Assembly: GCA_016930535.1 (NCBI GenBank)
Contig: JAFGGN010000117.1
Coordinates: forward strand, 1 to 50,006
Origin: a bacterium
GTDB lineage: Bacteria; Zhuqueibacterota; QNDG01; JAFGCO01
DNA length: 50,006 bases
Direction: 5' to 3'
The notes under the pieces: generated by a model
What the model saw: only the letters and a program-made list of their open reading frames with translations
Database searches by the model: none
Told to the model about the DNA's origin: nothing
In this document: positions 6,868 through 49,950 of the stretch, piece by piece
Layout of the letters: each line of letters begins with the position of its first letter
Numbering within the stretch: the first letter of the stretch is position 1
Position numbers and translations under genes: made by a program

Positions 6868-7200
6868 ATGAAACGGAGCCTCGGAGAGTCGATGAAACGG
6901 AGATGATAACAATGTCAATCACCGTCTCTCCCCGTCTCCGGTTCTCCGAAGCATTCGCGGTCCGCAGTATTTTTTAGGGGATGGGTAGCGGGGACCCATA
7001 TACGCGTCTGCCCTTCTACTGGTTTTCGCGGTCCGCGGTCCGCCGTCAGCGGTCTGATTGTGTTTGGAATTTAGAATTTGTTGTTTATGATTTATTTGTT
7101 TTTTGGGATTTGAGATTTGTGATTTACCTGCCGTCAGCGGTCTTATCCACCCATATACCCATACACTCATATACCCTTATACCCTTATACTCTTCCACCC
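6868..7200 (-). repeat. Mosaic intergenic repeat element R1 (reverse orientation)
   Basis: Contains the inverted core tcaccgtctctccccgtctccggttctccgaagcattc, gcggtccgc heptamers, the module ggggatgggtagcggggaccc, caaat-period repeats and tatgggt-type octamers. Same modules and order as R4 and R6. Confidence 0.8.
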
Positions 7201-7580
7201 TTCAACATCCTTACACCCATCCACCCCAGGACACTGCCGGTCACATAATACGGAAAATCGAGCCAGGTGAACGTATCGCCCAGCAGCGTACGGCCGATCA
7301 ATGTCGCCCGGATAGCGGTGAGGAACGGCGGATGCCAAAGCTGAAGACATTCCAGAACCGATGTGGCCAGAAACACGATCACGGAGATACGGACCGGATG
7401 TGCTTTGGGAAACACAGCGGCGGCGGCCAGGCACCAGAAAATTTCATACAGCACACCGCCCAGAGACTGACTGACCCAGATTTTGCCGAATCCATGATAA
7501 TGCTTGGTGTAAAATCCAAGCGGAACGAGAAAAATCAGAACGCACAGAATCCGGAGCCTGAACCGGCTTGTATTATCCAT
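7185..7580 (-). CDS. Small polytopic membrane protein (possibly DUF2809-like)
   Basis: 131 aa with 3-4 hydrophobic helices. The family assignment is from memory and tentative. The 3' end abuts or overlaps repeat R1. Confidence 0.5.
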   Translation of the reverse strand: MDNTSRFRLRILCVLIFLVPLGFYTKHYHGFGKIWVSQSLGGVLYEIFWCLAAAAVFPKAHPVRISVIVFLATSVLECLQLWHPPFLTAIRATLIGRTLLGDTFTWLDFPYYVTGSVLGWMGVRMLKGGRV

Positions 7581-7632
7581 AAAATCCCTCAGTCAGATTT
7601 GCATGGTAAGCACGATAATAAAATTTCTGTAA

Positions 7633-9654
7633 ATGATCAAGCAAATTCGTTATATTGAAACCATGCCGAGACCGGATAAAAAACCCGAGCTGCTGGTTCC
7701 CTGCGGAAAGCCGGAATCCTTCTGGGCGGCTATGGAAGGCGGTGCGGATGCGGTGTATTTCGGACTGAAGCAGTTCAACGCACGCACCCGCGCCATGAAT
7801 TTCACGCTTCAGGAAATGCATGCGCTCATCGAAGAGGCCCACCGGAGAAAAAAGAAAGCGTACCTGACCCTGAACACGGTCATCACGAACAGGGAACTCC
7901 CTGCGCTTGCCGAAACGCTGGTCCGCGCCGGTGAAACGGACATCGATGGTATCATCGTCCAGGACTGGGGTGTCTGCACGCTGATCCGGAAGCATTTTCC
8001 GGATATCCCGCTGCACGCCAGCACACAGATGGGCATACACAACACGCCGGGAGCGCGGAGCCTTCAGAAACTGGGATTCCGTAGAATCATTTTCGCGCGT
8101 GAACTCACACAGCATGAACTGGCTTCGATACGGCGGAACAACCGTATCGAAATGGAAATCTTCATCCACGGGGCCCTGTGCTATTCGTTCTCGGGCAGCT
8201 GCCTGTTCAGCAGTTATCTGGGCGGATTCAGCGCCAACCGCGGCGCATGCATGCAGCCCTGCAGGCGGAACTATCGGGCGGGCGGGAAAGATGTATTCCC
8301 GTTCAGTCTCAGGGACCTCGAATTGATCGGTCATATTCCGGACCTGATTCGGCTGGGCATCGACGCACTGAAAATCGAGGGCCGCATCAAATCAGCCGAA
8401 TATGCCTATACGGTGGCCAGGGCATACCGGATGGCCATCGATTATCCGGACCGGATCGGTGAGGCAAAGGCGATGCTGAAAGCGGATATGGGACGTGAAA
8501 AAACCGGCTTCTTTATCGGCGGATCCCTGAAATCCGTGATGACCGGGACACCGGCTACGGGCCTGTTGCTGGGCACGGTGCAGGAGGCGGACGGCCGCGG
8601 ATTCTCCGTTCAGACGGATCACCGCATCGAAACAGGAAACCGGCTCCGAATTCAGGATGCACAGAATGAGCTCCGGCACGCCCTCGTTGTCCCGGCCTGC
8701 CGGCGGAAGGGCCATTCTGTTTATATAGAGGCGGGAAAAACACAGGTCCGGTCCGGCGATCGGGTCTACCTTGCATCCACGGGAGGAACCCGGTTTCCCA
8801 CCAAACTGCGTCCCAAGACCTCGATTGTGCCCGGGCCCGTACCGCAGAAAAAAATCCGGGGGGTTCTGTCCGGTATTCACGCCTCGAATCCGTCCGGACC
8901 GCCCCGGTTGTATCTTAGACTGGACGCGCCTGAATGGATACGGCAAATACGGACCGATTCAGCGGAACGGATCATCCTGAAATTCAGCCGGAAAGATTTT
9001 CATGCATTCGATCCGCAAAGCCATGAAACGGCTCCGTTCAGAGAAAAAATCATCATGGAACTGCCCAAATTCATTCCGGAAGCGGATGCGGATCCGTACA
9101 GGGAAACCTGCAGCAGACTGTCTGAAGCCGGAATCCGTCATTTCATGCTGGGTCATTTCACGCAGAAGGAGCTCGTGCCGCGGGAATGCGCGCTCCTCAC
9201 GAACGAGAATGTGTATGCATTCAACGACGCGGCCGTATCCTTTTTAAAGGAAGAAAAAATCGGTGATTTCATCTATCCTTTTGAGAATGACATCGACAAT
9301 TTGTTGAGGGCGAAGGACAAAACCGGCATCGTGCCGCTGTATTTCAGGCCCGAACTGTTTTTTTCACGCACGCCCGTGCACGAGGTTGAAAAGGACGGAA
9401 TTTTTGTCGATTTGAGGAAAAAACGTTTTCAAAAGCGGATCAGGAACGGCATGACCGTTATCCTGCCCGAACATCCCGTGGCCCTTTTCCCGTACAAAAA
9501 CAGGCTGATTCAGTCCGGTTTCCGGAAATTTCTCATCGATCTGTCCTGGCAGGCCCCGTCCGGGATAAAGCTGAAAAAAATACTGGACCATTATCAGGCC
9601 GGTACGCCCATCCCCTCGGCCACGTCGTTCAATTTTAAGAAAGGACTGAAATGA
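7633..9654 (+). CDS. Peptidase U32 family protein (collagenase / RlhA-TrhP-like) with long C-terminal extension
   Basis: N-terminus ELLVPCGKPESFWAAMEGGADAVYFGLKQFNARTRAMNFT...GIIVQDWGV...CYSFSGSCLFSSYLGGFSANRGACMQPCRR is the typical U32 core with its Cys cluster. 673 aa. The start may instead be at 7663. Confidence 0.85.
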   Translation: MIKQIRYIETMPRPDKKPELLVPCGKPESFWAAMEGGADAVYFGLKQFNARTRAMNFTLQEMHALIEEAHRRKKKAYLTLNTVITNRELPALAETLVRAGETDIDGIIVQDWGVCTLIRKHFPDIPLHASTQMGIHNTPGARSLQKLGFRRIIFARELTQHELASIRRNNRIEMEIFIHGALCYSFSGSCLFSSYLGGFSANRGACMQPCRRNYRAGGKDVFPFSLRDLELIGHIPDLIRLGIDALKIEGRIKSAEYAYTVARAYRMAIDYPDRIGEAKAMLKADMGREKTGFFIGGSLKSVMTGTPATGLLLGTVQEADGRGFSVQTDHRIETGNRLRIQDAQNELRHALVVPACRRKGHSVYIEAGKTQVRSGDRVYLASTGGTRFPTKLRPKTSIVPGPVPQKKIRGVLSGIHASNPSGPPRLYLRLDAPEWIRQIRTDSAERIILKFSRKDFHAFDPQSHETAPFREKIIMELPKFIPEADADPYRETCSRLSEAGIRHFMLGHFTQKELVPRECALLTNENVYAFNDAAVSFLKEEKIGDFIYPFENDIDNLLRAKDKTGIVPLYFRPELFFSRTPVHEVEKDGIFVDLRKKRFQKRIRNGMTVILPEHPVALFPYKNRLIQSGFRKFLIDLSWQAPSGIKLKKILDHYQAGTPIPSATSFNFKKGLK

Positions 9655-9656
9655 CA

Positions 9657-9962
9657 GCTGGCAGCGGGCCGCTGGCCGAGAATGCCTCGGAGAAACGGAG
9701 ACGCGGTGAGACGGAGATGTTAACAGCAGATTGCTGACGGAGGACCGAGGACCGCGAAAAATTCCAAAATAGCAAATCACAAATGACAAATAAATAACAA
9801 ATTCCAAAATTCAAATATCCAAACATATTATTTTGACCGCGGATCGCTTGACATGGACGGCCGAGACGGCCGTCCTACATAATATAATTCTCTGTGGTTT
9901 TCTCTATTTTTTTCTCCGTTTCTCTTCCCCTCCGTCTCTCCGTATCCCATTCGGTCCCAATG
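9657..9962 (+). repeat. Mosaic repeat element R2
   Basis: Left arm gaatgcctcggagaaacggagacgcggtgagacggagatg, ggaccg units, caaat-period repeats, hairpin cttgacatggacggccgagacggccgtcc, right arm ttctccgtttctcttcccctccgtctctccg. Confidence 0.8.
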
Positions 9963-9978
9963 ATATCTTAAATATTGC

Positions 9979-11898
9979 TCATTTAAGAAGAACTATTTTC
10001 CCGGCTTTCACCCCGGAAACACTCTCGAGCCTGACAAAATACACACCGCTTTCAAGCTCCGAGGCATCGAAACGGACCTCATGGGCACCCGCGGATTTGA
10101 ATCCCTGCCAGAGGACGCACACCTCTTTGCCGAGCACGTCCGTCACGGTGAGCCGCGCCGGTCCGGACCGGTCCAGCGTATACGAAACGGTCGTGGACGG
10201 ATTGAAGGGATTGGGATAATTGGATCCAAGACCGAATGCCAGGGGCTGCACCGGCTTTTCCGCGATGCCGCTGCCCGTGGATATGGAAAACGGGGGATCG
10301 GATATATCGTAATTGCCGGGATGGCCCGCATCCTGAATCCTGATCAGGCAATTGTCCGACGGATGATCCGATATCAGGAGTCTTCGCGGACCGGGATCCG
10401 GCGACTGGATGACATTCGCCGGCTCCCAGTTCAGACCGCCGTCGAACGAAATATAAATTTCCACATAATTCACGCTGTTGGTCATCCAGGAAACCTTGAG
10501 CGTGTCACCCGGCGCAAAGACCTCCCTGCAGTCCGGCCAGTCGAGTGTATCCAGCAGCAGCCATGGAGGATCGCAACACCATGACATTAACACAACCGTT
10601 CCGAACCGCCAGGGTTCCCGCCAGGTCATATTGTCCGATCCCCACCACCGTATCATGTTCTCGCGGATTTCGTTGTCGCGGTCGTTTACCTGGACCTCGA
10701 ATCCGATTTCCAAATCAGGATCCTGAATTATATTCAGATCGGCGAAGGGAATTGCCAGTTCCAGGACATATCCAAATCCCCCCTCAAGTTCTCCCCAGGA
10801 GAACACATTGTTTTCCGTCCCGCCGGAAGCTTCCCCCCACACGTACCGGAGCTGGACATCGTCCACACCGTCAAACACATCGCCCTTGCTGTTATCCCCG
10901 TCGAAATACAGTTCCACGCTGTCGTTTTCCCAGGCATTCGCGCCCGACACACTGATCTCATCGTCGATCACCTCGATCCATAAAAAAAAGAAATCGGAAT
11001 CCCACATCATGCGGAATTCCATCTGCAGGTCCCGCCAGTCCTCGATTTCCGTATAGCTGCCGTCTACGACATCATCATTCGTGAACACGTACGTACAGGA
11101 TTCGATCACGTAAGATTCATCGGCCCAGACAGCATCCATTATACCGTCTATCTCAGGCGCCTCCGATGTACCGAGAACGCTCGACGCATCATCCGCTGTA
11201 AAAAAAGTCAGTTCCGCCTCACCCCATATATGGGCCCAGTGCCAGGCATCGTTCGAATCACCCCACCAGCGGAACATGTTCTCCCGGGCCTCGTTATCCC
11301 GGTCATTGATCTGAATCTCGAATCCGAATACACTGCCTGCTTCTGAATCGACTTCGATGTTTGCCAGTGGAAACGCCGCTTCGATAATATACCCGTATGC
11401 ATCACCGTCCGGATTCTCCCAGTCCGCCACCGCGAATACGGTGCCGTCCGGGCAGTTGTCCACGCCCGATGCATCCGTGTCCTGATACTCGATGCGCACC
11501 TGCACGTCATCCACGCCGTCGAAGGCCTCGACCACCTTCGAATTGTCCCCGTCGAAAAAATACTCCACGCTGTCGTTCTCGTACGAATTGGACGAGGAAG
11601 AACTGATCTCGTCGTCCACCACCTTCACGAACACGTAGAGATTTTCATAATCCCAGAGAAGCCTGGCCGCAGCGAAGAGGTCCAGGTAACTGTCCGGAGG
11701 CGCCGCATCGTCCCGGTTCAGCACAACAACCCGCTCCGTGGAAGCGGACCAGTAGAGTTTGTCCATATCCCCGTCGATCACGGGCGGATCCGCGGCATAA
11801 TAAACCTGCCACACGCCGTCTTTTACATGGGCGGACAGGTTCATACAAACCACGATGCCCAGGAGCACGATAGCAATCCGGTGTTTTCCGTTCATCAT
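9979..11898 (-). CDS. T9SS cargo protein with tandem CBM9-like carbohydrate-binding domains and Por C-terminal sorting domain
   Basis: Start MMNGKHRIAIVLLGIVVCMNLSA with signal peptide and RBS aggaa. The ORF track's extra 46 aa upstream run through repeat R3 and are spurious. Two CBM9-like units (YENDSVEYFFDGDNSK / WENDSVELYFDGDNSKG). C-terminus NPFNPSTTVSYTL...GVYFVRLESVSGVKAGKIVLLK. Confidence 0.85.
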   Translation of the reverse strand: MMNGKHRIAIVLLGIVVCMNLSAHVKDGVWQVYYAADPPVIDGDMDKLYWSASTERVVVLNRDDAAPPDSYLDLFAAARLLWDYENLYVFVKVVDDEISSSSSNSYENDSVEYFFDGDNSKVVEAFDGVDDVQVRIEYQDTDASGVDNCPDGTVFAVADWENPDGDAYGYIIEAAFPLANIEVDSEAGSVFGFEIQINDRDNEARENMFRWWGDSNDAWHWAHIWGEAELTFFTADDASSVLGTSEAPEIDGIMDAVWADESYVIESCTYVFTNDDVVDGSYTEIEDWRDLQMEFRMMWDSDFFFLWIEVIDDEISVSGANAWENDSVELYFDGDNSKGDVFDGVDDVQLRYVWGEASGGTENNVFSWGELEGGFGYVLELAIPFADLNIIQDPDLEIGFEVQVNDRDNEIRENMIRWWGSDNMTWREPWRFGTVVLMSWCCDPPWLLLDTLDWPDCREVFAPGDTLKVSWMTNSVNYVEIYISFDGGLNWEPANVIQSPDPGPRRLLISDHPSDNCLIRIQDAGHPGNYDISDPPFSISTGSGIAEKPVQPLAFGLGSNYPNPFNPSTTVSYTLDRSGPARLTVTDVLGKEVCVLWQGFKSAGAHEVRFDASELESGVYFVRLESVSGVKAGKIVLLK

Positions 11899-11917
11899 GT
11901 ATTCCTTTCGGTTGAAA

Positions 11918-12128
11918 TGGACCGCGGACGGCAAGACTGCGGACCGCAAATGCTTCGGAGAAACGGAGACACGGTGAAACGGAGAAAAAAACCGAGCAGG
12001 ATTAAACCGATGAATCTTTGATTCTCCGTTTCTCATTCTCTCCGAGGCCCCGTTTCACACTCCGCCCCAACGACTTCTTTAATCTTGCCTCTTTGTTCTT
12101 CGTTCTTTGGTCTTTGTTCTTTATTTTA
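11918..12128 (+). repeat. Mosaic repeat element R3
   Basis: gaccgcggacggcaagactgcggaccgc, then gcttcggagaaacggagacacggtgaaacggagaaaaaaa, then ttctccgtttctcattctctccgaggccccgtttcacactccgccccaacgac, then ctttgtt/ctttggt heptamers. Confidence 0.8.
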
Positions 12129-14034
12129 AAAGGATGATTTTCCCTGTCTTCACCCCCGCCCCGCTCTCGAGCCTGACAAAATACATACCGCTTTCAAGCC
12201 CCGAGGCATTGAACCGGGTCTTATACGAGCCCGGGAACTTGAATCCCTCATCGATGACGGCCACTTCCCTGCCCAGCAGATCCGTTACTGTGAGCCGCGC
12301 CGGTCCGGACCGGTCCAGCGTATACGAAACGGTTGTGGACGGATTGAAGGGATTCGGATAATTGGGCCCGAGACCGAATGCCCGCGGTCCTTCCGGACCG
12401 TTGACAGAAGTGACGATCGTAATTGGCGTGGTGACCGATTGTTGAAATGACGGATCATCGTGATCGACGAATTTGACCAGGCATTCGTTTGTCGTGCGGT
12501 CCGGGACAATCATGATGCAGTCGCCAAAGGCCGGCAACGCAGTACCGACCTGCTCCCAATCGAGACCGTTATTGAAGGAAATAAATATATCGATCGAATG
12601 GACATAATTCGAATCCCAGGAAAATTTCAGTGTATCGCCCGCTGCAAACGTTTCACCGCCATCCGGCTCGAATATCGAAATATATTTGAAATTAAAGGGA
12701 TCCGGCGGACAACCGGTGTAAAAAACAAGCGTACCAAACAGAGACGGATCGTTCCAGCTCATTATATTGGAGCTCCACCAGCGAATGATATTTTCCCGCT
12801 TTTCATGATCCCGGTCGTTCACATGCAGCTCAAATCCGACAACTTCATCACCCCCCAATCCGAACGGCAGATCCTGACGTGGAATTTTCAGCTCGAAGGT
12901 ATATCCCTCGAGTGAATCGAGCCGGCCCCAGGCATATTCATTGTTTTCCGTTCCGTCCGAGTCGCCGGTCCATGTATAATGCAGCCACATGTCGTTGTCA
13001 TCCCATTGACGGTTTTTTTCATTGCCCCCATCGAAAAAAAGCTCGATACAGTCATTCTCCCACCAGTTCGGGCTGGAAATACTGATTTCGTCATCGATCA
13101 CCTCGACCCACAGATACAGCGCATCGTAATTATGCATGACGCGGAATTCCATCTGCAGGTCTTCCCAGTCCAGAATTTCGGTATACGTACATCCCGGTAC
13201 GTCACAATTAGAGAAAACATACGTTCCCGACTCTATTGCAGGGGCATAATCGAACCAGTCATCGTCCAGGATGCCGTCGATTTCAGGATCCGGGGCCTGC
13301 CATTCCGAATGGAGCACATCGTCGGCCTCGAAAAAATTCAGTTCCGCCTCCCCCCAGAGATTGGCCATGTGCCAGGCGTCATTCGATTCACCCCACCAGC
13401 GGAACATGTTCTCGCGCATCCCGTTGTCCCGGTCGTTGATCTGAATTTCCCACCCGAAAACCGTGCCGGCCGATGCCTCGATATTCACGCTGGCCAGGGG
13501 AAACGCCGCCTCGATCGCATAACCGAACGCAAGCCCCTCAAGATTTTCCCAGTCCGCCACTGCGAACTCCGTGCCTTCAGGGCATTCATTCACTCCGGAC
13601 GGATCCGTATCCTGATACTCGATACGCACCTGTACGTCATCCACGCCGTCGAAAGCCTCGATCACCTTCGAATTGTCTCCGTCGAAAAAATACTCCACAC
13701 TGTCGTTCTCGTATGAATTGGACGAAGAAGAACTGATCTCGTCGTCCACCACCTTGACGAACACATACAGATACGTTTCATCCCACATCAACCGGGCCTC
13801 GGCAAACAGGTCCAGATAGCTGTCCGGAGATGCTGCATCCTCCCTGTCCTGCCTGATGACACGCTCTGTGGAGGCGCACTTATACAAATCGTCCATCTTC
13901 CCGTCGATCACGGGCGGATACGCGGCCTGCGGAATCTGCCATACGCCGTCTTTGACATGGGAAAACAGACTCAATGCTGAAAAAAAGCATAAAACCGTTA
14001 TCCATCTGTGAAACGAACGCATCGGTCTCTCCAT
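12121..14034 (-). CDS. T9SS cargo protein, paralog of 9979-11898 (CBM9-like domains plus Por CTD)
   Basis: 637 aa. Same domain order and near-identical motifs (HVKDGVWQ, YENDSVEYFFDGDNSKV, C-terminal ...GMYFVRLESGAGVKTGKIILLK). Confidence 0.85.
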   Translation of the reverse strand: MERPMRSFHRWITVLCFFSALSLFSHVKDGVWQIPQAAYPPVIDGKMDDLYKCASTERVIRQDREDAASPDSYLDLFAEARLMWDETYLYVFVKVVDDEISSSSSNSYENDSVEYFFDGDNSKVIEAFDGVDDVQVRIEYQDTDPSGVNECPEGTEFAVADWENLEGLAFGYAIEAAFPLASVNIEASAGTVFGWEIQINDRDNGMRENMFRWWGESNDAWHMANLWGEAELNFFEADDVLHSEWQAPDPEIDGILDDDWFDYAPAIESGTYVFSNCDVPGCTYTEILDWEDLQMEFRVMHNYDALYLWVEVIDDEISISSPNWWENDCIELFFDGGNEKNRQWDDNDMWLHYTWTGDSDGTENNEYAWGRLDSLEGYTFELKIPRQDLPFGLGGDEVVGFELHVNDRDHEKRENIIRWWSSNIMSWNDPSLFGTLVFYTGCPPDPFNFKYISIFEPDGGETFAAGDTLKFSWDSNYVHSIDIFISFNNGLDWEQVGTALPAFGDCIMIVPDRTTNECLVKFVDHDDPSFQQSVTTPITIVTSVNGPEGPRAFGLGPNYPNPFNPSTTVSYTLDRSGPARLTVTDLLGREVAVIDEGFKFPGSYKTRFNASGLESGMYFVRLESGAGVKTGKIILLK

Positions 14035-14170
14035 TCAGACAGAGGGATCATGAAAATAATGAAGCAGGGGATTATTTCAAACAATATAGGAAATTTAACA
14101 GTGAATTACAATAATGAAGGTCAAAATGTATTGACCGGACCGGGCTCCCTGAACGGATTGGCCGGCTCCG

Positions 14171-16564
14171 CTATTGATCGATCAGGATGAATTTGGCCAG
14201 CATCTGCTGTTCGCTCTGGGACATGGATTCGAGGGCCTGCGCCAGTTCCGCGGCCACGTGCAGCTGTTCGGACATTTCCCTGGTCAGCGTATTCACCTGC
14301 TCGACCGCGGCCATGTTGTTCTCGCTCAGGTCAGAGACATTCTTCATGGCCTCTCCCACTTTATGGGACGATGCCTGCATCTTCTCCATGGCATTTGCAA
14401 TGTTCTGCATGCGTTGTTTGTCCAGTTTGACGAGATGCTGAATCTTGTTCAGTGCGCTCATGGCCGAATCCGTAAGTTTTGTGGATTCCCTCATCTTGCC
14501 GAGGCCATCGTTCATTACTTTTTCCACCCGGGAAATGGAACCCTGCACCGTGTTGATCAGCGTGGCGACTTCCGTGGTCGCATCCGACGTACTTTTTGCC
14601 AGGGACCGGATTTCACGGGCCACGACCATAAAGCCGTGCCCGAATTCGCCGGCCTTCGTGGCTTCGATGGCCGCGTTCAGCGCCAGCACGTTCACCCTGG
14701 AGGCGATATCATTGATCAGCTCGACCACATCGTCGATACGCTCCGAATTCTTGCCCAGATCTTCCACGATGCTCCAGGTATCCGAGACCGATTCTTCGAT
14801 CACTTTCATGGTCTTGAGTGTTTCGTTCATGGCTTCGGTACCCGAATTCACAGCCTGGGTCGTGTTCTCCGTAGCTTTGGCGCTTCTTTCGGCATCCCTG
14901 CTGACCCTGTCGATCTCGTTCATCAGGTCCTGAAGTTCGTCTCCCGTGTCCTCGACATGCTTGTTCTGTTTTTCTGTTCCCTCGGCCATATTGTTCATGG
15001 CTTCCTTGATCTGCGCAGTGGCCTCGCTGGTCTGATACGTGCTGCTGGCCAGGTTTTCACTTAAGCCCATGAGGCTGGCGGCCTGTTCCGCAATCGTATA
15101 CACCATCCCGCGCAGGCTGAGGGGATCGCTGTTGTACAATCCGACGGCAATGCCATGTTCCACAGCCCTGTTCAGATACGGGATAAAGGATTTCTGGGGC
15201 GCCATGGTGACAAAACCGTCATAACGCTGCTCGATCAGCGCATCGATCACGGGCCCGTAAATTTCGATGGTGATATCGTTGACCCGGTGCACCTCTTTCG
15301 GCGCATACACATCGATGGTGACATCGTGCTTGTCCAGTGTCCGCATCGCTTCCTTGACGCCTGTCAGAATGGATATCCAGAACGCGGTATCGTCCCGGCC
15401 AAGCACCGCGATACGGAGGGGACGCGGCGCCTTGTCGATGAGCGGCTTGGCCATCTTGGCACGCAGATGATCCGAAAAAACCATGCCCGTGGTTTCATTC
15501 CAGAACAGCTTGTAATTGTCCCTGTTCACCTCTTCCATGTCCGTGAGAAGAAGCGGCATGGGAGGCTTCCATCCGGTTGCCAGATGATTGTACATATGAA
15601 TGACCGGGTTATACCCCTGTGCGAACGAGTTCTGGCTCAGTGTGGCCGTGATCACGCCCTCTTTCACCCAGCGCATGGTATCGTCCATCAGATCATGGCA
15701 GACCACCTTGACCTGACTGGCCCTTTCCCTGGCGACCAGGGCCTTGGCAAACTGGGCCGGCGGTGATCCGCACGCGATATAAATACCGGCCAGATCCGGA
15801 TGTTTTTCCAGTACATCGAGGCCCGCCTGATAGGCCTTGCCGCCTCCGGCGGAAGCCTCCACAAAATCGACCACTTTCACATCGGGGTATTTTTCACGGA
15901 TGGCATTGAGAAATCCGCGGCGCCTCAGATCCAGGTTCGTTGCGGAAAAAGACTCCGCCGTCACCACGACCTGCCCCTTTCCCCCCAGAATACGGCCCAT
16001 GATTTCCCCGCAACGCCTGCCTTCCAGAAACGAATCCGCACCCACGTAAAAAAGCCGCTTGCACGGAATGCCCGTGATGTTGTTGAATGCCTGTGCCGCA
16101 TCGTTCAGACCCCGGATCAAATTGTTGAATATATCGGCCATATGAACGAGATCCGACTGGATCCGTGTGTCGAGCGGCTTTGTTGTAAAATGCATCTGAC
16201 GGGAAAAATTTCCCTGGGACAGTTCTGCAAGACCGCCCGACAGGGCCGGCATTTGTTCAGAGGCCAATGCCTGCCCGGTCTGCATTATTTGTCTGGAGGG
16301 GCGCATCTGAAGATGATGCATCAGCCAGAACAGGGCCAGCATCAGTATGCCGTAACCCAGAAACAGTCCCGTGACGATGTACGATATCCGGACCGATTCC
16401 GCATTTTCATTGAGAAATTCTGCCTGAATCCATGAAAAAGTCCGGATGCCGGCGAAAACAAACAGGCCGAAAACAACAAGTGCGATATAATGTATTCTAA
16501 AATCAATGAAATGCTGAACCCACTTCGAGCGCATTGTCTTCTCCTTAAACGCCTGAAAAATCAC
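14171..16564 (-). CDS. Methyl-accepting chemotaxis protein with two cytoplasmic PBP1 (LacI/RbsB-type sugar-binding) domains
   Basis: Two TM helices separated by a ~19-aa loop, so no periplasmic ligand-binding domain. A HAMP-like segment follows. Two periplasmic-binding-protein type-1 folds (e.g. KVVCHDLMDDTMRWVKEGVITATLSQNSFAQG). The C-terminal MCP signalling domain is present (NVLALNAAIEATKAGEFGHGFMVVAREIRSLA). Confidence 0.85.
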   Translation of the reverse strand: MIFQAFKEKTMRSKWVQHFIDFRIHYIALVVFGLFVFAGIRTFSWIQAEFLNENAESVRISYIVTGLFLGYGILMLALFWLMHHLQMRPSRQIMQTGQALASEQMPALSGGLAELSQGNFSRQMHFTTKPLDTRIQSDLVHMADIFNNLIRGLNDAAQAFNNITGIPCKRLFYVGADSFLEGRRCGEIMGRILGGKGQVVVTAESFSATNLDLRRRGFLNAIREKYPDVKVVDFVEASAGGGKAYQAGLDVLEKHPDLAGIYIACGSPPAQFAKALVARERASQVKVVCHDLMDDTMRWVKEGVITATLSQNSFAQGYNPVIHMYNHLATGWKPPMPLLLTDMEEVNRDNYKLFWNETTGMVFSDHLRAKMAKPLIDKAPRPLRIAVLGRDDTAFWISILTGVKEAMRTLDKHDVTIDVYAPKEVHRVNDITIEIYGPVIDALIEQRYDGFVTMAPQKSFIPYLNRAVEHGIAVGLYNSDPLSLRGMVYTIAEQAASLMGLSENLASSTYQTSEATAQIKEAMNNMAEGTEKQNKHVEDTGDELQDLMNEIDRVSRDAERSAKATENTTQAVNSGTEAMNETLKTMKVIEESVSDTWSIVEDLGKNSERIDDVVELINDIASRVNVLALNAAIEATKAGEFGHGFMVVAREIRSLAKSTSDATTEVATLINTVQGSISRVEKVMNDGLGKMRESTKLTDSAMSALNKIQHLVKLDKQRMQNIANAMEKMQASSHKVGEAMKNVSDLSENNMAAVEQVNTLTREMSEQLHVAAELAQALESMSQSEQQMLAKFILIDQ

Positions 16565-18501: not shown

Positions 18502-18611
18502 ATTGACACCTCCGTCATCAAATTGCACAATCCGACAATACCGCTTCAAGTTAAATCCGGCAGGGTATGAGGATCAAGCGGTTTTTATGGTAATGAGGTT
18601 ACATAAAACGG

Positions 18612-19075
18612 AATATGGGTATATGGGTATATGGGTTTATGAGTATATGGGTATATGCGGCCCTGCCTCCCCCTTTCCTGTATTTTGACCGCGGACGGCG
18701 GACCGCAGACCGCGAAAACCAGTACAAGGGTAAACGCGTATATGAATATATGGGTCCCCGCTACCAATCCCCTAAAAAAGACCGCAGACCGCGGACAGCG
18801 GACCGCTGACCATGAATGCTTCGGAGAGACGGGGAAGATGAGAAACGGAGACTGAAACCCGGCCTCGCCTTTTTCTTCGTATCTCTGTTTCTCACCACTC
18901 CGTTTTATGGTCCGCTTGCGAGGGACGGGCAGGGCTGCCCGTCCTACATAAAATCTCTGCGCCTCTGCGTCTCCGCGGTTTTCTTATTTTTTTCTCCGTT
19001 TCCCCGTTTCTCTGAAGCTCCGTTTCACGTTCCGACTCTACGACCCTATTGACCCAATGACCCAAAAGACCCTAC
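18612..19075 (+). repeat. Mosaic repeat element R4 (long variant, ~460 bp) occupying the GH13 upstream region
   Basis: gtatatgg octamers, gaccgcR heptamers, the gggtccccgctaccaatcccctaaaaaa module, more heptamers, left arm gaatgcttcggagagacggggaagatgagaaacggaga, inner hairpin gacgggcagggctgcccgtc, the ctctgcgcctctgcg module, right arm ttctccgtttccccgtttctctgaagctccgtttcacgttccgactctacgaccc, and caatgaccc 9-mers. Confidence 0.85.
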
Positions 19076-27371: not shown

Positions 27372-27630
27372 ATGGACGGCGGACCGCTGACCGTGAATGC
27401 TTCGGAGAACCGGAGACGCGGTGAAACGGTGATGTTAAAAACAGACAACTGACGGCGGACCGCAAACCGCTTGACATGGACGGCCAAGACGGCCGTCTTT
27501 AAAAAAACTCTGCGTCCTCTGCGCCTCTGCGGTTATCTCTTCATTCAACATTCAAAATTTAACATCGTTATTTCTCCGTTACTCCGTCGCTCCTTCTCTC
27601 CGTTTCACGCTCCGACACGACGACCGGCTT
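27372..27630 (+). repeat. Mosaic repeat element R5
   Basis: ggcggaccgctgacc, then gtgaatgcttcggagaaccggagacgcggtgaaacggtgatg, then ccgcttgacatggacggccaagacggccgtc, then ctctgcgtcctctgcgcctctgcg, then ttctccgttactccgtcgctccttctctccgtttcacgctccgacacgacgacc. Confidence 0.85.
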
Positions 27631-27646
27631 TCTTTGAATTTTTATC

Positions 27647-28753: not shown

Positions 28754-28862
28754 GCGCTCTGTCTTTATGATGAATGGATTGTCGGATTGTTCGTGATGCG
28801 GACCCGGTTAAAAATGGTGGATATTTCAGACAAAGTCAAGGGAAAAGGACGGCATTGAATCG

Positions 28863-29168
28863 GTGTATGGGTTTACGGGTTTATGGGTTTATGAGTATAT
28901 GGGACCCTGCCTCCCTGCCCCTGTAAATAATTGACCGCGGACGGCAAGACCGCGGACCGCAAGAGAAATACCAAATCTCAAATCCCAAAATACAAATAAA
29001 AAACAAATTTCAAATTACAAATTCAAAATAGGACCTCAGACGGCGGACCGTAGACCGTTAAAGCTTCGGAGAGACGGAGAAGATGAGAAACGGAGAAAAA
29101 AACAGCTTTTCTTACTCTCCGTTTCCCCGTTTCTCAATCTCTCCGCTTCACACTCCGACACAACGACT
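28863..29168 (+). repeat. Mosaic repeat element R6
   Basis: gtWtaYgg octamers, gaccgcR heptamers, ~60 bp of caaat-period repeats, ggaccg units, left arm aagcttcggagagacggagaagatgagaaacggagaaaaaaa, right arm tctccgtttccccgtttctcaatctctccgcttcacactccgacacaacgac. Confidence 0.85.
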
Positions 29169-29180
29169 CATTAAACTTTG

Positions 29181-30290
29181 TTAATCCTGCTCCCGAATGA
29201 ACGCATCCAGCGCCTCGACAAATCTCTGGTTCTGGTCCTCCGTGCCGACCGTGATGCGCAGACAGTTTGGCAGATTGTAATTCTCCACCGGGCGCGTGAT
29301 GAATCCCCTTTCGAGCAGGGCCTGATATAAGGGCGCGGCCGGTTTTTCAAAATCCGCGAGAATGAAATTGGTCTGGGAGGGATAGTATTTGATCTGAAGC
29401 CGTTCGAATTCCGCCTGAAGAAATGCCCGTCCCTTCCGGTTGATTTCAATGGATTTTTCGATATGCTCCTGATCGTCCAGCGCGGCCAGGGCCGCGGCCT
29501 GGGCCATGCGGTTGACATTAAAAGGCGGCCGTACGCGGTCCATGTACCCGATCAGCTCCCTGTGCGACACACCGTATCCCACACGAAGCCCGGCCAGCCC
29601 GTATATCTTCGAAAATGTGCGCAACACGATCAGGCGGTTGCGGTACGGTGCGTACTCCAGGCCGTTGGGCACGTCCGGATCGTCCACGTATTCCGCATAG
29701 GCCTCGTCGATGCAGATTACGATATCGTCGCGTATGTGTGACAAAAACCGCTCGAATTCCCGCGTGCTGAAAATCCGGCCCGTCGGATTGTTGGGATTGG
29801 CCAGGAACACCACCTTGGTTTTTTCATTCACGGTACATGCCACGGCATCCATATCGTAGGTCATGTCCGGTTTCAGGGGAACCGTGATCTCCTGCCGGTT
29901 GTGAGAGATCCCGGCCAGTTTGTAGATGATGAACGACGGCTCTCCGGTCACGATGTTTTCGTTCGGAGCCACGAAGGTCCGTATGACGAATTCGATGATC
30001 TCGTTGCTTCCGTTGCCGATGATCAGGTTGTGCGGTTCGATGTCATATTGCGCCAGATGGGCGGCCAGCGCCTCCTTCAGCGTGTAGCAACCGCCGTCCG
30101 GGTAATAATGCATTTCCCCGCACGCGGCCTTCATGGCCTCGATCGCCTTCGGGGACGGTCCCAGGGGATTTTCATTGGAAGCCATCTTCACCGGGTCGGG
30201 AAGGCCCAGCTCGCGCTTGGTTTCTTCGATCGGCTTGCCCGGCTGATAGGGCCGTAATTTTTCGATATTGCGCGTGACCAGCGGTTTCAT
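29181..30290 (-). CDS. hisC: Histidinol-phosphate aminotransferase
   Basis: 369 aa. KLASNENPLGPSP-type N-terminus (MASNENPLGPSP). PLP-lysine motif FSKIYGLAGLRVGY. Length and motifs are typical of HisC. Confidence 0.85.
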   Translation of the reverse strand: MKPLVTRNIEKLRPYQPGKPIEETKRELGLPDPVKMASNENPLGPSPKAIEAMKAACGEMHYYPDGGCYTLKEALAAHLAQYDIEPHNLIIGNGSNEIIEFVIRTFVAPNENIVTGEPSFIIYKLAGISHNRQEITVPLKPDMTYDMDAVACTVNEKTKVVFLANPNNPTGRIFSTREFERFLSHIRDDIVICIDEAYAEYVDDPDVPNGLEYAPYRNRLIVLRTFSKIYGLAGLRVGYGVSHRELIGYMDRVRPPFNVNRMAQAAALAALDDQEHIEKSIEINRKGRAFLQAEFERLQIKYYPSQTNFILADFEKPAAPLYQALLERGFITRPVENYNLPNCLRITVGTEDQNQRFVEALDAFIREQD

Positions 30291-36283: not shown

Positions 36284-36322
36284 GTTACCTCCCAGGGAGC
36301 TCCAAGCTCCCTGGGAGGTAAC
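36284..36322. repeat. Palindromic element P3a (gttacctcccagggagct-cca-agctccctgggaggtaac)
   Basis: Perfect 18-bp inverted arms. Same core as the P4 right half. Confidence 0.8.
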
Positions 36323-36342
36323 TGTCTTCCCTCTGTCACGAT

Positions 36343-39560: not shown

Positions 39561-39780
39561 AAGATGATCCTCCTGATAAGTGGATGGTCGGTTGACCTGC
39601 ATCCATCCGATTGCCCGAATGATTACCCTTGTGATGTGATTATATTCAAGATGATTGTTTTAATTAAAGCAATAAAATTAAAAATAAAAAGGATTTCTTG
39701 ATTTTTAAAATATTTTATACCAAGTTTCATCTGGTGCCGGTTTAAAAAATTGTTCAATTTCAGGGCAAGCCCCAATCGAC

Positions 39781-39860
39781 TCTATCTCTGCTTACTCCGG
39801 TCCTCTGCGGTAATCCTTCTTTGGTCTTTGGTCTTTGTTCTTCAATCTTTAACCTTGCCC
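39781..39860 (+). repeat. Solo fragment R7 of the mosaic family (ctctgcg module plus ctttggt heptamers)
   Basis: ctctatctctgcttactccggtcctctgcgg followed by ctttggtctttggtctttgttcttc. No arms present. Confidence 0.6.
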
Positions 39861-41365: not shown

Positions 41366-41508
41366 TGACCGCGGAGGGCGGACCGCTGACCGAAAATGCT
41401 TCGGAGAAACGGAGAAGATGAGAAACGGTGATATTAACCGCAGACCGCAGACCGCTGACCGCTGACCGTGAATGCCTCGGAGCGACGGAGAAGATGAGAA
41501 ACGGAGGG
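41366..41508 (+). repeat. Mosaic repeat element R8 (two tandem left-arm modules, no right arm)
   Basis: gaccgcggagggcggaccgctgacc-gaaaatgcttcggagaaacggagaagatgagaaacggtga, then accgcagaccgcagaccgctgaccgctgacc-gtgaatgcctcggagcgacggagaagatgagaaacggag. Confidence 0.8.
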
Positions 41509-42097: not shown

Positions 42098-42102
42098 ACA
42101 GG

Positions 42103-42131: not shown

Positions 42132-42147
42132 CACCTGAAAATCGGTT

Positions 42148-42206
42148 GACACCTCCGGGAGGTCCTTCGCACTTATCTCCCAGGGAGCTTCAAGCTCCCT
42201 GGGAGA
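42148..42206. repeat. Palindromic element P4 (gacacctccgggaggtc plus tctcccagggagctt-c-aagctccctgggaga)
   Basis: Both palindrome types of family P are adjacent here, as at 36284-36404. Confidence 0.8.
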
Positions 42207-43377: not shown

Positions 43378-43402
43378 GAAATCGAATGACAACGGACATG
43401 CC

Positions 43403-46400
43403 ATGAAAATTATCGATATATCCATACGCCGGCACGTCACCATCGCCATGTTCACCCTGGCCGTGATTCTGTTCGGCCTGGTCGGTTTTTCCCGCCTGAG
43501 GATGAATCTGCTGCCCGAACTGTCCTATCCGACCATCACGGTGCGCACCGATTATCCGGGCGCCGCGCCCGCGGAAATCGAGAACCTGATCTCGAAGCCC
43601 GTGGAAGAGGCCCTGGGCGTGGTGAAAAACGTGAACCGCGTGCATTCCATTTCCAGGTCCGGCCAGTCCGACGTGCTGCTCGAGTTCGTCTGGGGTACGG
43701 ATATGGATTACGCGGGTCTGGACGTTCGCGAAAAACTGGATGTGCTGCAGCTGCCCCTGGACGTACAGCGCCCGGCCATTCTGAGATTCGATCCGTCCCT
43801 GGATCCCATTCTCCGGTTCGGATTTTACCGCAGGAATCCGCAGGATACGCTCGCAGCCGGAAATCCCGGGGACAGTTTCGACGAGGAGGGCCTGAAATAC
43901 CTGCGGCGTTTCGCCGAGGAGGAAATCAAGAAGGAACTGGAAGCGGCCGTGGGCGTGGCCGCGGTGAAGATCAGCGGCGGGCTCGAGGATGAAATCCAGG
44001 TGCTGATCGACCAGCAGAAACTGGCCCAGTTGAAGATACCCGTATCCGCGCTCGTGAACCAGCTGGCCGCGGAAAACGTCAACCTGTCCGGCGGACGGCT
44101 CGAGGAGGGCACGCATCAGTATCTCGTGCGCACCATCAACCAGTTTCGATCCGTGCCCGAGATCGGGGACATCATCGTGGCGCACGAGGGACAGAAACCG
44201 GTGTACCTGAGAGACATCGCCATGGTCCGGCACGGGTACAGTGAACGGGAAGCCATCACGCGTTTTGACGGCCGTGAAGCGGTTGAAATCGCCATATACA
44301 AGGAAGGGGATGCCAACACCGTGGCCGTGGCCCGTGAAGTGGAAAAGCGGCTCGGACGCGTGCGCGGCATTCTGACCGAAGACATGGTTCTGGTCAACGT
44401 ATACGACCAGTCCAAATTCATCAATCAGGCCGTCAACGAGGTCATCTCGGCCGGAATCATCGGCGGACTGCTGGCCGTGATCATCCTCTATTTCTTTCTC
44501 CGGAATTTCTGGTCTACGGTAATCATTTCCCTGTCCATTCCCGTGTCCGTCATCGCCACGTTCAACCTGATGTACGGTGCGGATCTCAGCCTGAACATTA
44601 TGTCCCTGGGCGGCATTGCGCTGGGCGTCGGCATGCTGCTGGACAATTCCATCGTGGTGCTCGAAAACATCGCCAGGCACCGGAGCCAGGGCAAGGACGC
44701 ATTCACGGCAGCCGGAGACGGGGCAAGCGAAGTGGGCATGGCCGTCACCGCATCCACACTGACCACGGTGGCCGTGTTCTTTCCGCTGGTTTTCGTGAAA
44801 GGCATCGCCGGACAGCTCTTCCGCGACCAGGCACTCACGGTCACGTTTTCACTGCTCGCCTCGCTCGTCGTGGCCCTGACCCTGATTCCCATGCTCGCAT
44901 CGATTAAAAGGGATTCGAAACCGCCGGCCGGATCCGGACGAAAACCGGACAAACCGCCCCGGACGGCCTTCGGCCGGTTCATGAGAAAAACCGGGCACCT
45001 GCTTTTTACTACCATCCCCGCCGGACTGCTTCGCCTGATCCTCAAAGGCCTGTCGAAACTGGCCGCGGGCGCTTCTTTTCTGCTCAATCCACTGCTGAAC
45101 CGGTTTCAGTCCGGATATCAGCGCATCGAAAACCGGTACCCGGAAATCATCACATGGGCATTGAACCATCGCCGCAGCGTCATCGGCATCGCATTGGGGC
45201 TGTTCCTGCTCTCCCTTTGGATCGGTGCCAACCTGGGCGTGGAACTCATTCCCCAGCTGTCGCAGGGCGAGTTCCGCGTGGAATTCAAGCTGCCCCCGGG
45301 CACGCCTCTCGAGAAAACCGATGCGGTGATCGCCGCTATTCAGAACCGGTCGGCCGGTCTGAAGGGCGTACACACCCTGTTCTCGGTGGCAGGCACGGGA
45401 AACCGCATGAATGCCAATCCGGAAGAAGGCGGCGAAAACTGGGGCGAGTTGAACGTGGTGCTGAATTCAGGTGTCAGCCGCAGTGAGGAAAGAGCAATTA
45501 TGGACCGGATCCGGGACCACGTGGTCCAGGTGCCCGGCATTCAGTATAAATTCGGAAGACCCACGCTGTTCACGTTCAAGACGCCGGTTGAAATCGAAAT
45601 CGCGGGATATGAGCTGGACCGCCTTGGGAAGGTCAGCGCGGCCATTGTCGGGAAAATGGAGGCCTCGGACCGTTTCACGGACGTGAAGTCGACCATGGAA
45701 GGCGGGCATCCCGAAATCCAGATCTATTTCGACCGGGAACGCGCCGCAGCGCTCGGACTCGCCGTATACGAAGTGGCGGACCGCGTGGTCAGCAAGGTGC
45801 GCGGCGACATTGCCACACGCTATTCATGGCGCGACCGGAAAATAGACGTGCTCGTGCGCACGCGTGAACAGGACCGCAATTCCATCGACGGGATACGCAG
45901 ACTGATCGTGAATCCCGAAAGCGACAAGCCCGTTCCCCTGGAAGCCGTGGCAGACGTGGTGGTGGGCACGGGACCCGGCGAAATACGCCGCGTGAACCAG
46001 GAGCGGGTGGCCGTGGTTACGGCCAATCTCAGTTTCGGGGACCTCGGAGCCGCATCGAAGGAAATCGCGGATATCATCACGGCCGTACCCGTTCCGGCTG
46101 GAATCGACGTAAAACTGGCCGGCCAAAACGAAGAAATGCAGGCGTCGTTCCGTTCCCTGCAGCTCGCTCTGCTGCTGGCCGTTTTCCTGGTCTATCTCGT
46201 CATGGCTTCGCAGTTCGAATCGTTTCTCCATCCTTTCGTGATATTGTTCACCATTCCGCTGGCCCTGATCGGCGCCGTGCTCGCCCTGTGGATCACGAGC
46301 TCCACCATCAGCGTGGTGGTGTTCATCGGGCTGATACTTCTGGCCGGCATCGTGGTGAACAATGCGATCGTGCTCATCGACCTGATTAATCAGCTCAGGG

Positions 46401-46639: not shown

Positions 46640-46655
46640 CACGCAGGATCCTGTT

Positions 46656-49600: not shown

Positions 49601-49688
49601 CACGCTCCTCATCCTGCCGACCATTTACATTCTGCTGGATGATCTCAGGAACTGGTTCAGAAAAATCTTCCACGCGGCAAGGATGTAA
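46656..49688 (+). CDS. RND family efflux transporter permease, second paralog (MdtC-like partner)
   Basis: 1010 aa, same architecture. Divergent from the first pump, with motifs such as VVVNNGIVLIDHVNQLR. Confidence 0.9.
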   Translation: MDITEFSLKRPITMLMIFVCFLVIGIISSRILPLEFFPDISFPYIDIDLPYPGSTPEETERLITRPAEEVLATISNIKNMYSRSGENGGHVSLEFEWGVDLDLKGLEAKEKLDGVRHLFPRDMERFYIGKASASDWELMALRISSNRDLSNAYDMLNRNLKRRLERIEGVSRINMYGIEKKEIRIQLDANKIIAHHVDLNRLSALLQRSNFQVTAGKITDGSKRFVVRPIGQFADVQDVADLIVADPDIRLHDIADVSFEHPIRDYGRHLDGKYAIGLDVFKESGANTVEVADRVTAEIEAIGKLPEMEGISLFYMDNAAEGIVSSLNELLNSGLLGGLFAILILFFFLRRLSTTLIVALAVPFSIFVTLAFMYFLGISLNILSMMGLMLAVGMLVDNAVVVTENMHRYQLKHDEQHHAILFGAQEVRLAVTAGTLTTCIVFLPNIISPNDEMSLYLKHVGITICIALGASLFIAQTVVPLLASKTRPPDRSRKTVINKLMEKYRAVLHWTLKHRKWSILAFVVILFSVAVPIKLVPFKMFDEPDDRKFRLHYNIEGAYTLDKVEEAVDIMEAYLFEHQEEFEIRSVYSYYETDYAMSTILLEKGDKAHKTIKQIQELVRKDLPRLPIVRPSFEYQDRGGRGGESVQVKLTGKSSEELVLLSKDIAWVLSQIPGLVDARSEAETGHQEVHVIVDRKRASQYGFTTAEIANVVSAALRGINLRRFHDEEGEIQTRLVFQENDRQNLDQLQNLPLFDKNNNPVKLATLADFEVRGGPRSIRRINRNTSLNVISNLNGISVNEARNRIQNVLKDYRFPPGYVWNFGERFDYEQEALNTMLFNLVMALVLIYFLMAALFESLIFPGAVWTQIIFSVVGVYWFFFITGTTMSVMGLIGILILIGVVVNNGIVLIDHVNQLRERGKSREEAILDAGRDRLRPILMTAGTTVLSLVPLCMVTTQIGGNGPPYFPMARAIVGGLTFSTLITLLILPTIYILLDDLRNWFRKIFHAARM

Positions 49689-49691
49689 ATG

Positions 49692-49950
49692 GGGTCATTG
49701 AGTCGTAGGGTCGTTGGGTCATTGGGTCGGGGCGTGAAACGGAAAGAAAAGCAATGTTGGATTTTAAATGTTGAATGAAAAGAATAAAGATGACCGCAAA
49801 GACGCAGTGGACGCAAAGAAGGAACAGAAGAGTAAAAGATTAGAAGGGAAAGAATATCAAAGTATAAACATTGCTATTTTTTGGGGATGGGTAACGGGGT
49901 CCCATACACCCATTTCCTTATATACTCTGCTATATTAAATATCAAGCGTT
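49692..49950 (-). repeat. Mosaic repeat element R9 (reverse orientation; may continue beyond the window)
   Basis: gggtcattg 9-mers, cgtgaaacgg (inverted right-arm fragment), an inverted gcagaggcg-like module, and ttttttggggatgggtaacggggtcccata (same module as in R1 and R4). Confidence 0.7.

Follow-up and report, generated by a model that had tools for sequence, protein, structure and literature searches.

The locus and its repeat copies

The DNA studied here is the 50,006-bp stretch that makes up the complete contig JAFGGN010000117.1 (assembly GCA_016930535.1), which we refer to in its full length as the window. Its spacers harbor nine homologous intergenic loci (R1 to R9; in total 2,346 bp or 4.7% of the window), which are copies of one composite, non-coding repeat element that consists of ordered modules and includes two inverted arms. 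The initial annotation had already proposed a dense modular intergenic family whose inverted arms can form a long hairpin. This family is genuine, and its nine loci are real: our locus coordinates, which are based on module tiling, differ from the earlier ones by a few bases only, and R1 and R9 are indeed reversed relative to the other loci. What the initial annotation had missed is the structure of 7-8-nt words, the collinear order of the modules, the sense orientation after stop codons, one of the modules (H, see below) and the published precedents of heptamer arrays.

The core of the left arm, TGCYTCGGAGARMCGGRGA, occurs 9 times within the window when up to 2 mismatches are allowed, compared to 0.00 expected occurrences (100 shuffles). 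Direct and inverted multi-copy repeat families, identified via a repeat search of the window, tie all nine loci together, and profile searches (nhmmer) recover every copy with E-values of 1e-7 to 1e-19. When the nine loci are compared with the window (blastn-short, E<=0.01), matches are confined to these loci, i.e., neither a coding sequence nor any other spacer is hit. A map of 10/12-mer repeats of the window was swamped by chance repeats and is uninformative.

The loci are listed below with coordinates, strand and module content (modules are introduced in the next section), along with their position relative to the neighboring genes.

R1, 6868..7190 (+): M1, loop, M2, We, T, We, Wf, We, Wg. 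Starts 31 nt past the terminator of a conserved small RNA (sRNA)-like unit; at its far end, it reaches into the stop codon of the DUF2809 gene, which is convergent.
R2, 9657..9962 (-): (Wa-like), M1, x, H, We, Wf, We, x, M2, We. Lies between convergent genes, with the CBM9 stop codon 16 nt and the U32 stop codon 2 nt away.
R3, 11919..12122 (-): Wb, M1, loop, M2, We. Its start coincides with the stop codon of the CBM9 gene 12121-14034; its end is ~23 nt ahead of the next CBM9 start codon.
R4, 18610..19072 (-): Wa, M1, x, Wd, H, x, M2, We, T, We, P, Wg; the most complete copy. Its start likewise coincides with a stop codon, namely that of a TM1266-like gene, and its end lies just ahead of the conserved motif that precedes the amylase gene.
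R5, 27374..27641 (-): (Wb-like), M1, Wc, Wd, H, We, x, M2, We. Starts 5 nt past the stop codon of the aminotransferase gene 27647-28753.
R6, 28862..29169 (-): M1, loop, M2, We, Wf, We, P, Wg. Starts 11 nt past the stop codon of the aminotransferase gene 29181-30290.
R7, 39780..39859 (-): Wb, then a Wd-like stretch; a partial copy without arms. Starts 15 nt past the stop codon of a K+ channel-like gene and has only two word modules in common with the other loci.
R8, 41367..41508 (-): 76-nt unit [M2, We] twice in tandem, no M1. Starts 27 nt past the stop codon of a CopG-like gene.
R9, 49691..49917 (+): Wa, truncated M1, Wc, Wd, x, T; a partial copy without M2. Starts 2 nt past the stop codon of an RND pump gene.

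A tenth locus is found at the end of contig L059 from the Logan assembly of the same genome, where it starts ~20 nt past a canonical terminator.

Module structure and common descent

Each locus is tiled contiguously from a set of about 12 modules. Read away from the upstream gene, their order is Wa/Wb, M1, [Wc, Wd, H, (We, Wf, We)], M2, We, [T, We], [Wf, We], [P], Wg, where bracketed modules are optional. That is, individual loci keep different subsets in unchanged order, and no single module is common to all nine. The sole irregularity concerns Wf, which is located inside the arms in R2 and outside of them in R1 and R6. The modules central to the following are given with an example and their other copies.

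M1, 18992..19044 (-) in R4: arm, GTCGTNGNGTCGGAGYGTGAAACGGAG...GAAACGGAGAA, purine-rich in sense orientation; further copies at 6868-6904(+), 9912-9943(-), 12022-12074(-), 27572-27624(-), 29115-29169(-) and, truncated, 49726-49752(+).
M2, 18814..18851 (-) in R4: arm and inverted homologue of M1, TCTCCGTTTCTC....TCTCCG...CTCCGARGCATTC; further copies at 6918-6956(+), 9680-9718(-), 11948-11986(-), 27395-27433(-), 29059-29097(-), 41394-41432(-) and 41470-41508(-).
H, 9845..9878 (-) in R2: hairpin that resembles a GTAG-tagged repetitive extragenic palindrome (REP), GTAG-GACGGCCG-TCT-CGGCCGTC-CATGTCAAGCG; further copies at 18913-18953(-) in R4 and 27468-27507(-) in R5.
T, 18715..18779 (-) in R4: unique, non-periodic sequence, TTTTTTAGGGGATKGGTAGCGGGGACCCATATA...ACGCGT...TACTGGTTTT; further copies at 6968-7026(+) and, partial, 49877-49917(+).
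We, 18687..18714 (-) in R4: array of GCGGTCN heptamers, often GCGGTCYGCGGTCCGCCGTCMGCGGTC.

In most cases, a module is made up of 7- or 8-nt words repeated in tandem. For 9/9 loci, Tandem Repeats Finder (TRF) detects arrays with a period of 7 or 8, based on the words GACCGCN, CGGAGAAA, ATATGGGT, CAAATNN, CTCTGCGNC, TCTTTGG and GGGTCATT, the numbers of which vary from locus to locus. Respective base autocorrelation within the elements peaks at lags 7 (0.36), 8 (0.40), 14 and 16; for other spacers and coding sequence it is about 0.25. Even the arm M1 is an 8-nt periodic series, which drifts from GGGTCATT-like to CGGAGAAA-like words.

Beside these words, the loci have long non-periodic stretches in common, e.g., 58 nt at 91% identity between R1 and R4, and the repeat search yields inverted matches of 51-64 nt between loci. 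Mean column identity is 81% for the eight aligned M2 arms, M2 being the best-conserved module, and 65% for the seven aligned M1 arms. Since long non-periodic stretches recur among loci, the copies share common descent instead of independent slippage, i.e., they derive from one ancestral element of roughly 650-700 bp. We arrays border M2, T and Wf in all loci and are candidates for the junctions of the deletions that set the copies apart.

Given these data, we consider it scarcely credible that there is no dispersed element at all and that the loci result from local replication slippage, independently in each spacer, or from an assembly or chimeric artefact. Slippage would account for the differing word numbers and, according to the summary of Mrazek (2007) given in PMC4679880, has been proposed for heptanucleotide tandem repeats, which in many bacterial genomes outnumber any other type of long simple repeat. 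However, long non-periodic sequence in the same module order across loci is beyond the reach of independent slippage, and neither slippage nor an artefact fits copies that are diverged and have unique flanks each. An artefact, named in the initial annotation as one outcome that would refute its proposal, is furthermore very unlikely since an independent assembly of run SRR13394437 (Logan) reproduces the sequence at 100% identity wherever it has coverage (7102-10177, 18999-20095 and 27521-29001; all of R2 and parts of R1, R4, R5 and R6) and since gene order across R1, R3 and R4 matches that of a relative (see below). The Logan contigs break inside elements (at 7102, 18999, 27521, 29001 and the end of L059), which is the effect that a multi-copy repeat has on de Bruijn graph assembly. 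The elements thus break short-read assemblies of their host and could also cause mis-joins in its metagenome-assembled genome.

Inverted arms and the H hairpin

Next, we studied the relation of the two arms. A profile of M2 picks up the M1 arms on the opposite strand and vice versa (nhmmer). M1 and M2 are thus inverted homologues, which corroborates the earlier alignment of the right arm's reverse complement to the left arm. Both arms are present in 6/9 loci (R1-R6), with lengths of 26-34 nt, a complementarity of 70-82% and 19-195 nt in between. The remaining loci show two tandem copies of one arm (R8), a truncated arm (R9) or none (R7). The arm hairpins have folding energies between -31 and -57 kcal/mol and z-scores between -1.9 and -5.5 relative to dinucleotide shuffles, i.e., the hairpins of R1-R6 are more stable than their shuffled counterparts, as the initial annotation had suggested to check by folding full copies. 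Its view of a full copy as a long imperfect hairpin with terminal inverted repeats of ~35 bp can thus be kept with respect to the hairpin, but not with respect to the terminal position: the arms are internal, because homologous modules lie outside of both (Wa/Wb before M1; We, T, Wf, P and Wg after M2).

A second hairpin is provided by module H. GTAG-tagged REPs are units of 20-40 nt with an unpaired GTAG tag, a stem of 6-13 bp and a loop of 2-3 nt, which are located mainly downstream of coding regions (Di Nocera 2013, PMC3733652). H fits this definition, including its position, with GTAG, a G+C-rich stem of 8-9 bp and a 3-nt loop (GACGGCCG, TCT and CGGCCGTC in R2). Within R4, GTAG is kept and the stem is preserved by changes on both sides, while R5 shows AAAG in place of GTAG. 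In REPINs, REPs form inverted doublets with a spacer, for which compensatory changes are common (Bertels and Rainey 2011, PMC3116915).

It could therefore be asked whether the family is a REP/REPIN-type system, in which the H hairpin or the M1/M2 pair is the substrate of a RAYT (an IS200/IS605-like Y1 transposase) encoded elsewhere, while the other modules hitch-hike as in bacterial interspersed mosaic elements (BIMEs). The structure of H, its pairing-preserving changes in R4 and the arrangement of M1/M2 as an inverted doublet with spacer, as found in REPINs (PMC3116915), are in accordance with such a system. We nevertheless give it a slim chance, since H is found in 3/9 loci only, always singly instead of as high-copy inverted doublets with compensatory change, and once without GTAG. 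Furthermore, M1 and M2 are non-palindromic and lack a GTAG tag, the window encodes no Y1 transposase, and the arms show no co-evolution, in contrast to the compensatory changes common in REPINs (PMC3116915).

Position and orientation

Every copy is intergenic, with all module matches falling into spacers. The M1/Wa/Wb end begins 0-31 nt past the stop codon or terminator of a unit that is transcribed towards the element, and all eight orientation-informative loci (including the one from L059) are in sense orientation relative to their upstream gene (two-sided p ~0.008). R1 and R2 are only 2.5 kb apart and show opposite chromosomal orientation, each following its own local gene. That is, the polarity of the elements tracks transcription and not replication. 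Based on the domain annotation of the window, the flanking genes have no functional class in common.

Two known types of signal were considered for the elements and rejected. A canonical intrinsic terminator does not match, since the T6 run of module T is at least 11 nt away from the M1/M2 stem and present in three loci only, and since terminator-like sites are only ~1.6 standard deviations (sd) above expectation. A sigma-70 promoter based on the TTGACA of module H does not match either, since the distance to any -10-like hexamer is 22-29 nt.

Comparison with relatives

The proteins of the window include MBN1782910.1 and MBN1782932.1. Several of the encoded proteins carry the Por_Secre_tail domain (type IX secretion sorting) and occur together with glycoside hydrolases and carbohydrate-binding modules, which places the host in the FCB group. 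Its lineage is poorly sampled: among 5.8 billion proteins, the best homologue of the U32 peptidase is 51% identical.

Via a protein search with CBM9 and its paralogues, we reached a syntenic relative from the same sample (GCA_016932575.1). Its locus L060 shows the gene order of window positions 1-22200 (tRNAs, sigma and anti-sigma factor, DUF4097, DUF2809, two CBM9, MCP, amylase, TM1266-like and GH31 genes) with protein identities of 46-79% (amylase 79%, GH31 71%, DUF4097 46%). Here, the sites orthologous to R1, R3 and R4 are short, element-free spacers. The position of R1 is bracketed by the sRNA-like block, which is 98% conserved, and the DUF2809 stop codon; that of R4 by the stop codon of TM1266 on one side and, on the other, by ATGTAAC..ATTACCA, a conserved motif located upstream of the amylase gene. 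The TM1266-like protein upstream of R4 has kept its native C-terminus.

No full module is found in ~65 kb of the relative (L060, L062 and L063; blastn-short and nhmmer). The same ~65 kb hold two short heads, both of which are sense-oriented and immediately follow a stop codon. One (L060, ~11673-11750) is limited to Wa and AAAGAA-type words, the other (L062, ~15270-15325) combines Wa words with GACTGAAACGGAGCTT, i.e., the start of M1, also given as GTGAAACGGAG. The head thus predates the split of the two genomes, and the complex mosaic was either expanded in the lineage of the window or lost in the relative. More distant relatives (L054-L056; U32 peptidase 49-51% identical) carry no such repeats.

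The genes next to R1-R3 show further differences between the two genomes. The tandem CBM9 paralogues of the window, which carry type IX sorting domains (9979-14034, -), are 72-82% identical in blocks at the DNA level, and each is followed by an element head (R2, R3). The relative's two tandem CBM9 genes are shorter (381 and 548 aa) with no element in between. The U32 peptidase gene (7633-9654, +) is located between DUF2809 and CBM9 in the window and adjoins DUF2809 in the more distant L056, while it is gone from that position in L060, which is a local gene loss or move beside R1 and R2. Finally, a serine recombinase gene of the relative (L060, 19256-20452, -) adjoins a tRNA-His/tRNA-Glu pair at the start of the synteny and may mark an integrated element there; none is found beside the tRNAs of the window.

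Strict sense orientation and a start within 0-31 nt of the upstream stop codon would also be expected if the family was a functional cis-acting RNA or DNA platform under selection, in which the word arrays are binding sites that set messenger RNA (mRNA) 3'-end stability, termination or translation of the neighboring genes. Candidates are ACGGA/GGAG words for a CsrA-like protein or the ribosomal anti-Shine-Dalgarno sequence, GCGGTC words for a DNA-binding protein, and the G-rich GGGTCATT words as G-quadruplexes (G4) just past stop codons. We rate this explanation as possible but unlikely. In its favor, the head (Wa words and GTGAAACGGAG) is kept just past the stop codon in a relative from a different genus-level lineage, the arm M2 is better conserved than any other module, and a post-transcriptional regulator that binds heptamer repeats has been proposed for TAACTGA arrays (PMC4679880). 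Canonical four-tract G4 motifs are present on the sense strand in Wa of R4 and R9, but in no other locus, and they are not enriched overall (4 observed vs. 2.1 expected window-wide). Moreover, module content varies widely without any module being present throughout, no compensatory pattern is seen between the arms, the predicted folds place the GGA/GGAG words in paired positions of the stem, the orthologous genes of the relative manage without the element, and the flanking genes lack a common functional class.

Database searches and known repeat families

The initial annotation had considered the family to be previously undescribed, which is in agreement with all searches we performed. Within Rfam, only two tRNAs of the window reach the gathering threshold, and no family matches the elements; at E<=5, the elements match only microRNA models at chance level. 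Scanning 185,579 species-representative genomes for the 19-nt arm core resulted in 52 isolated single matches from unrelated phyla with no other modules nearby, which we attribute to chance because their count fits the chance expectation and no further modules adjoin. The 35-nt arm pattern and the T-module pattern have zero matches in JGI metagenomes, the 19-nt arm core has two isolated single matches in IMG/VR, and plasmids and phages provide no match to the arm/module patterns. We also queried a protein collection with a spurious open reading frame read across the element in order to catch copies annotated as hypothetical proteins, where no candidate was found.

Two further element classes were rejected. 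Integron attC sites are likewise imperfect palindromes after genes, but the loci show no R-box, no integrase is present, the genes are large housekeeping genes and the spacing is irregular (by eye). For class C group II introns, which are orientation-specific and found near terminators, no intron domain match was obtained.

Among known systems, the architecture is closest to the BOX elements of streptococci and the BIMEs of E. coli, while the word structure recalls the heptamer arrays of cyanobacteria. BOX elements follow the scheme boxA, (boxB)n, boxC, with variants of seven modules known from S. suis (Croucher et al. 2011, PMC3049150). Both BOX and the window family are composite and non-coding, with modules in fixed permutations and an optional or tandem interior (e.g., the tandem 76-nt unit of R8). 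BOX sizes (67-637 bp) compare to those of the window family, outer modules pair into a stem-loop if transcribed, and both are enriched downstream of coding sequences and follow the coding orientation (PMC3049150). In contrast to the internal arms and the lack of visible duplications reported here, BOX elements have true terminal inverted repeats and target-site duplications. Judged by eye without alignment, their sequences show no resemblance to those of the window, whose modules are themselves 7-8-nt word arrays, and their hosts are Firmicutes instead of an uncultivated lineage of the FCB group.

With the BIMEs of E. coli and with GTAG-tagged REPs/REPINs, the family shares its mosaic structure, the intergenic location after genes, a GTAG-tagged G+C-rich hairpin and an inverted doublet that forms a larger hairpin. 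BIMEs, however, are composed of REPs in alternating orientation with conserved non-REP motifs in between, whereas each locus of the window holds at most one REP-like hairpin. It also differs from REPINs, since most of the element is unrelated to the REP-like hairpin, no RAYT is present in the window and the arms evolved without compensatory changes.

Heptamer assemblages are known for TAACTGA in Beggiatoaceae, Cyanobacteria and Bacteroidetes (MacGregor 2015, PMC4679880), and G4-forming GGGNATC repeats are found on the sense strand close to stop codons in Xanthomonas and Nostoc (Rehm 2015, PMC4692102). Such intergenic arrays, including the cyanobacterial STRR type, resemble the window family in their tandem 7-nt words (7-8 nt in the window) that are placed in spacers with several words side by side, in G-rich sense-strand words within 50 bp of the stop codon, and in their absence from close relatives with the same gene neighborhood. 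Tandem 7-8-nt units in non-coding DNA, the hallmark of STRR/LSSR-type repeats, are present in all nine loci. On the other hand, heptamer arrays are mostly single-word and lack long unique modules, inverted arms and a conserved multi-module order, all of which the window family has. Their words are different as well, and the window loci are homologous copies of one composite element.

Bacterial MITEs (miniature inverted-repeat transposable elements) like Correia/NEMIS and RUP are small, non-coding, dispersed, intergenic elements with inverted repeats and a variable interior. All of this equally describes the window family. The initial annotation had thus suggested a MITE-like mobile element, which is only partly supported. 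The absence from the sites orthologous to R1, R3 and R4 (between genera) is in line with this suggestion, while the internal arms and the high divergence of the copies, which are 65-81% alike in the arms, are not; neither a target-site duplication at the variable outer boundaries nor a transposase in the window was found, and no parent insertion sequence is known. Overall, the family falls outside any named family, but its general category is already familiar.

Interpretation

We favor, with moderate confidence, that the loci form a lineage-specific composite family of non-coding intergenic repeats, which spread non-autonomously and is co-transcribed with the upstream gene as a 3' untranslated region (3'-UTR). 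Mobility is suggested by dispersed homologous copies that are absent from orthologous sites, i.e., by sequence comparison. The element would have spread as a non-autonomous unit that was either mobilised in trans or copied by recombination, and its copies would then have eroded by deletion between the recurring GCGGTC arrays and by replication slippage of words. Only sense-oriented copies just downstream of transcription units would have been tolerated. Within the presumably co-transcribed 3'-UTR, the M1/M2 stem-loop could form and possibly buffer 3' decay or attenuate read-through. Such an effect on 3'-end stability or read-through is put forward by analogy, as it has been proposed for REP, BIME and BOX.

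Several observations weigh against this interpretation. First, the cognate M1-M2 pairs are not more stable than non-cognate ones. In the 6x6 matrix of fold energies for R1-R6, the fraction of permutations that are at least as good as the cognate pairing is 0.73 (RNA) and 0.97 (DNA). There is thus no advantage of the arms within a locus, and neither a hairpin recognised by a transposase nor a selected RNA stem is demonstrated. In most copies, the M1/M2 hairpin is furthermore not followed by a U-run. Signals in the region 6-20 kb are likewise inconspicuous: 16 sigma-70-type promoter-like sites compare to 11.6 in shuffles (sd 3.2; ~1.4 sd) and 22 terminator-like sites to 14.9 (sd 4.5; ~1.6 sd), neither of which we count as enrichment.

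Second, mobility itself faces objections. The 50-kb window encodes no transposase or recombinase domain. The variable outer boundaries show no direct repeat and no sharp boundary, and the empty sites of the relative are too diverged for base-exact junctions. With 65-81% similarity, the arms are less alike than would be expected of an element, such as a MITE, with recent activity. The presence/absence comparison is one between genera and not within a single species, and R2 and R3 may have been copied by segmental duplication along with the CBM9 paralogues, i.e., not by separate insertions. Finally, about 54 kb of the host genome were examined in all.

A bolder version, which we judge to be decidedly unlikely, would be a new non-autonomous element that is still active, with the 8-nt word arrays of its inverted subterminal arms as recognition sites and with one-way insertion downstream of stop codons or terminators, or else a genome-wide 3'-UTR code of word arrays that is read by an RNA- or DNA-binding protein. 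It is eukaryotic hAT and CACTA transposons, and not bacterial MITEs, for which word arrays in subterminal inverted arms are known.

To our knowledge, most work on dispersed intergenic repeats has dealt with Proteobacteria, Firmicutes, Neisseria and Cyanobacteria, where they are well studied, whereas uncultivated lineages of the FCB group have hardly been covered. The family unites features that are usually found separately, namely 7-8-nt words, a pairing inverted doublet, a GTAG-REP-like hairpin, collinear optional modules and a strict sense orientation from the stop codon onwards. If its orientation and position rules hold genome-wide, it would provide a useful case for distinguishing 3'-end targeting from filtering by selection, as well as a test case for word arrays as protein- or ribosome-binding sites within 3'-UTRs.

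Other features of the window

The sRNA-like block that precedes R1 (6697-6836, +; ~12330-12480, -, in L060 of the relative) is non-coding and ~98% identical between the two genomes, compared to 46-79% for the flanking proteins. It shows a sigma-54-like TGGCAT-N5-TTGT box, followed by ~90 nt with a strong hairpin (CCCCCGAUGGG...CCUGUCGGGGG) and U7 run at their end. Judged by its sequence, the block is a candidate for a conserved small RNA, without a match in Rfam.

A tRNA-Glu call by ARAGORN at 44900-44976 (-) lies inside the coding sequence of the RND efflux pump, has no Rfam match and is almost certainly a false positive. The DUF4097 'toastrack' gene contains tandem repeats of 54 nt (18 residues) at 5700-6010 (+), which are ordinary repeats at the protein level and unrelated to the intergenic family. 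A second palindromic repeat, CTCCCAGGGAGCTYCAAGCTCCCTGGGAG, which is likewise unrelated, has two oppositely oriented copies (36 nt, 89% complementary) at 36289-36324 and 42170-42205, each in a spacer of its own.

Upstream of the amylase gene, next to R4, the motif ATGTAACnTnATTACCA...GCTTGATC is found at 18588-18604 (-). In the relative, it precedes both the amylase and the GH31 gene (L060, ~3885-3925 and 275-315) and is probably an operator or promoter common to starch-utilisation genes.

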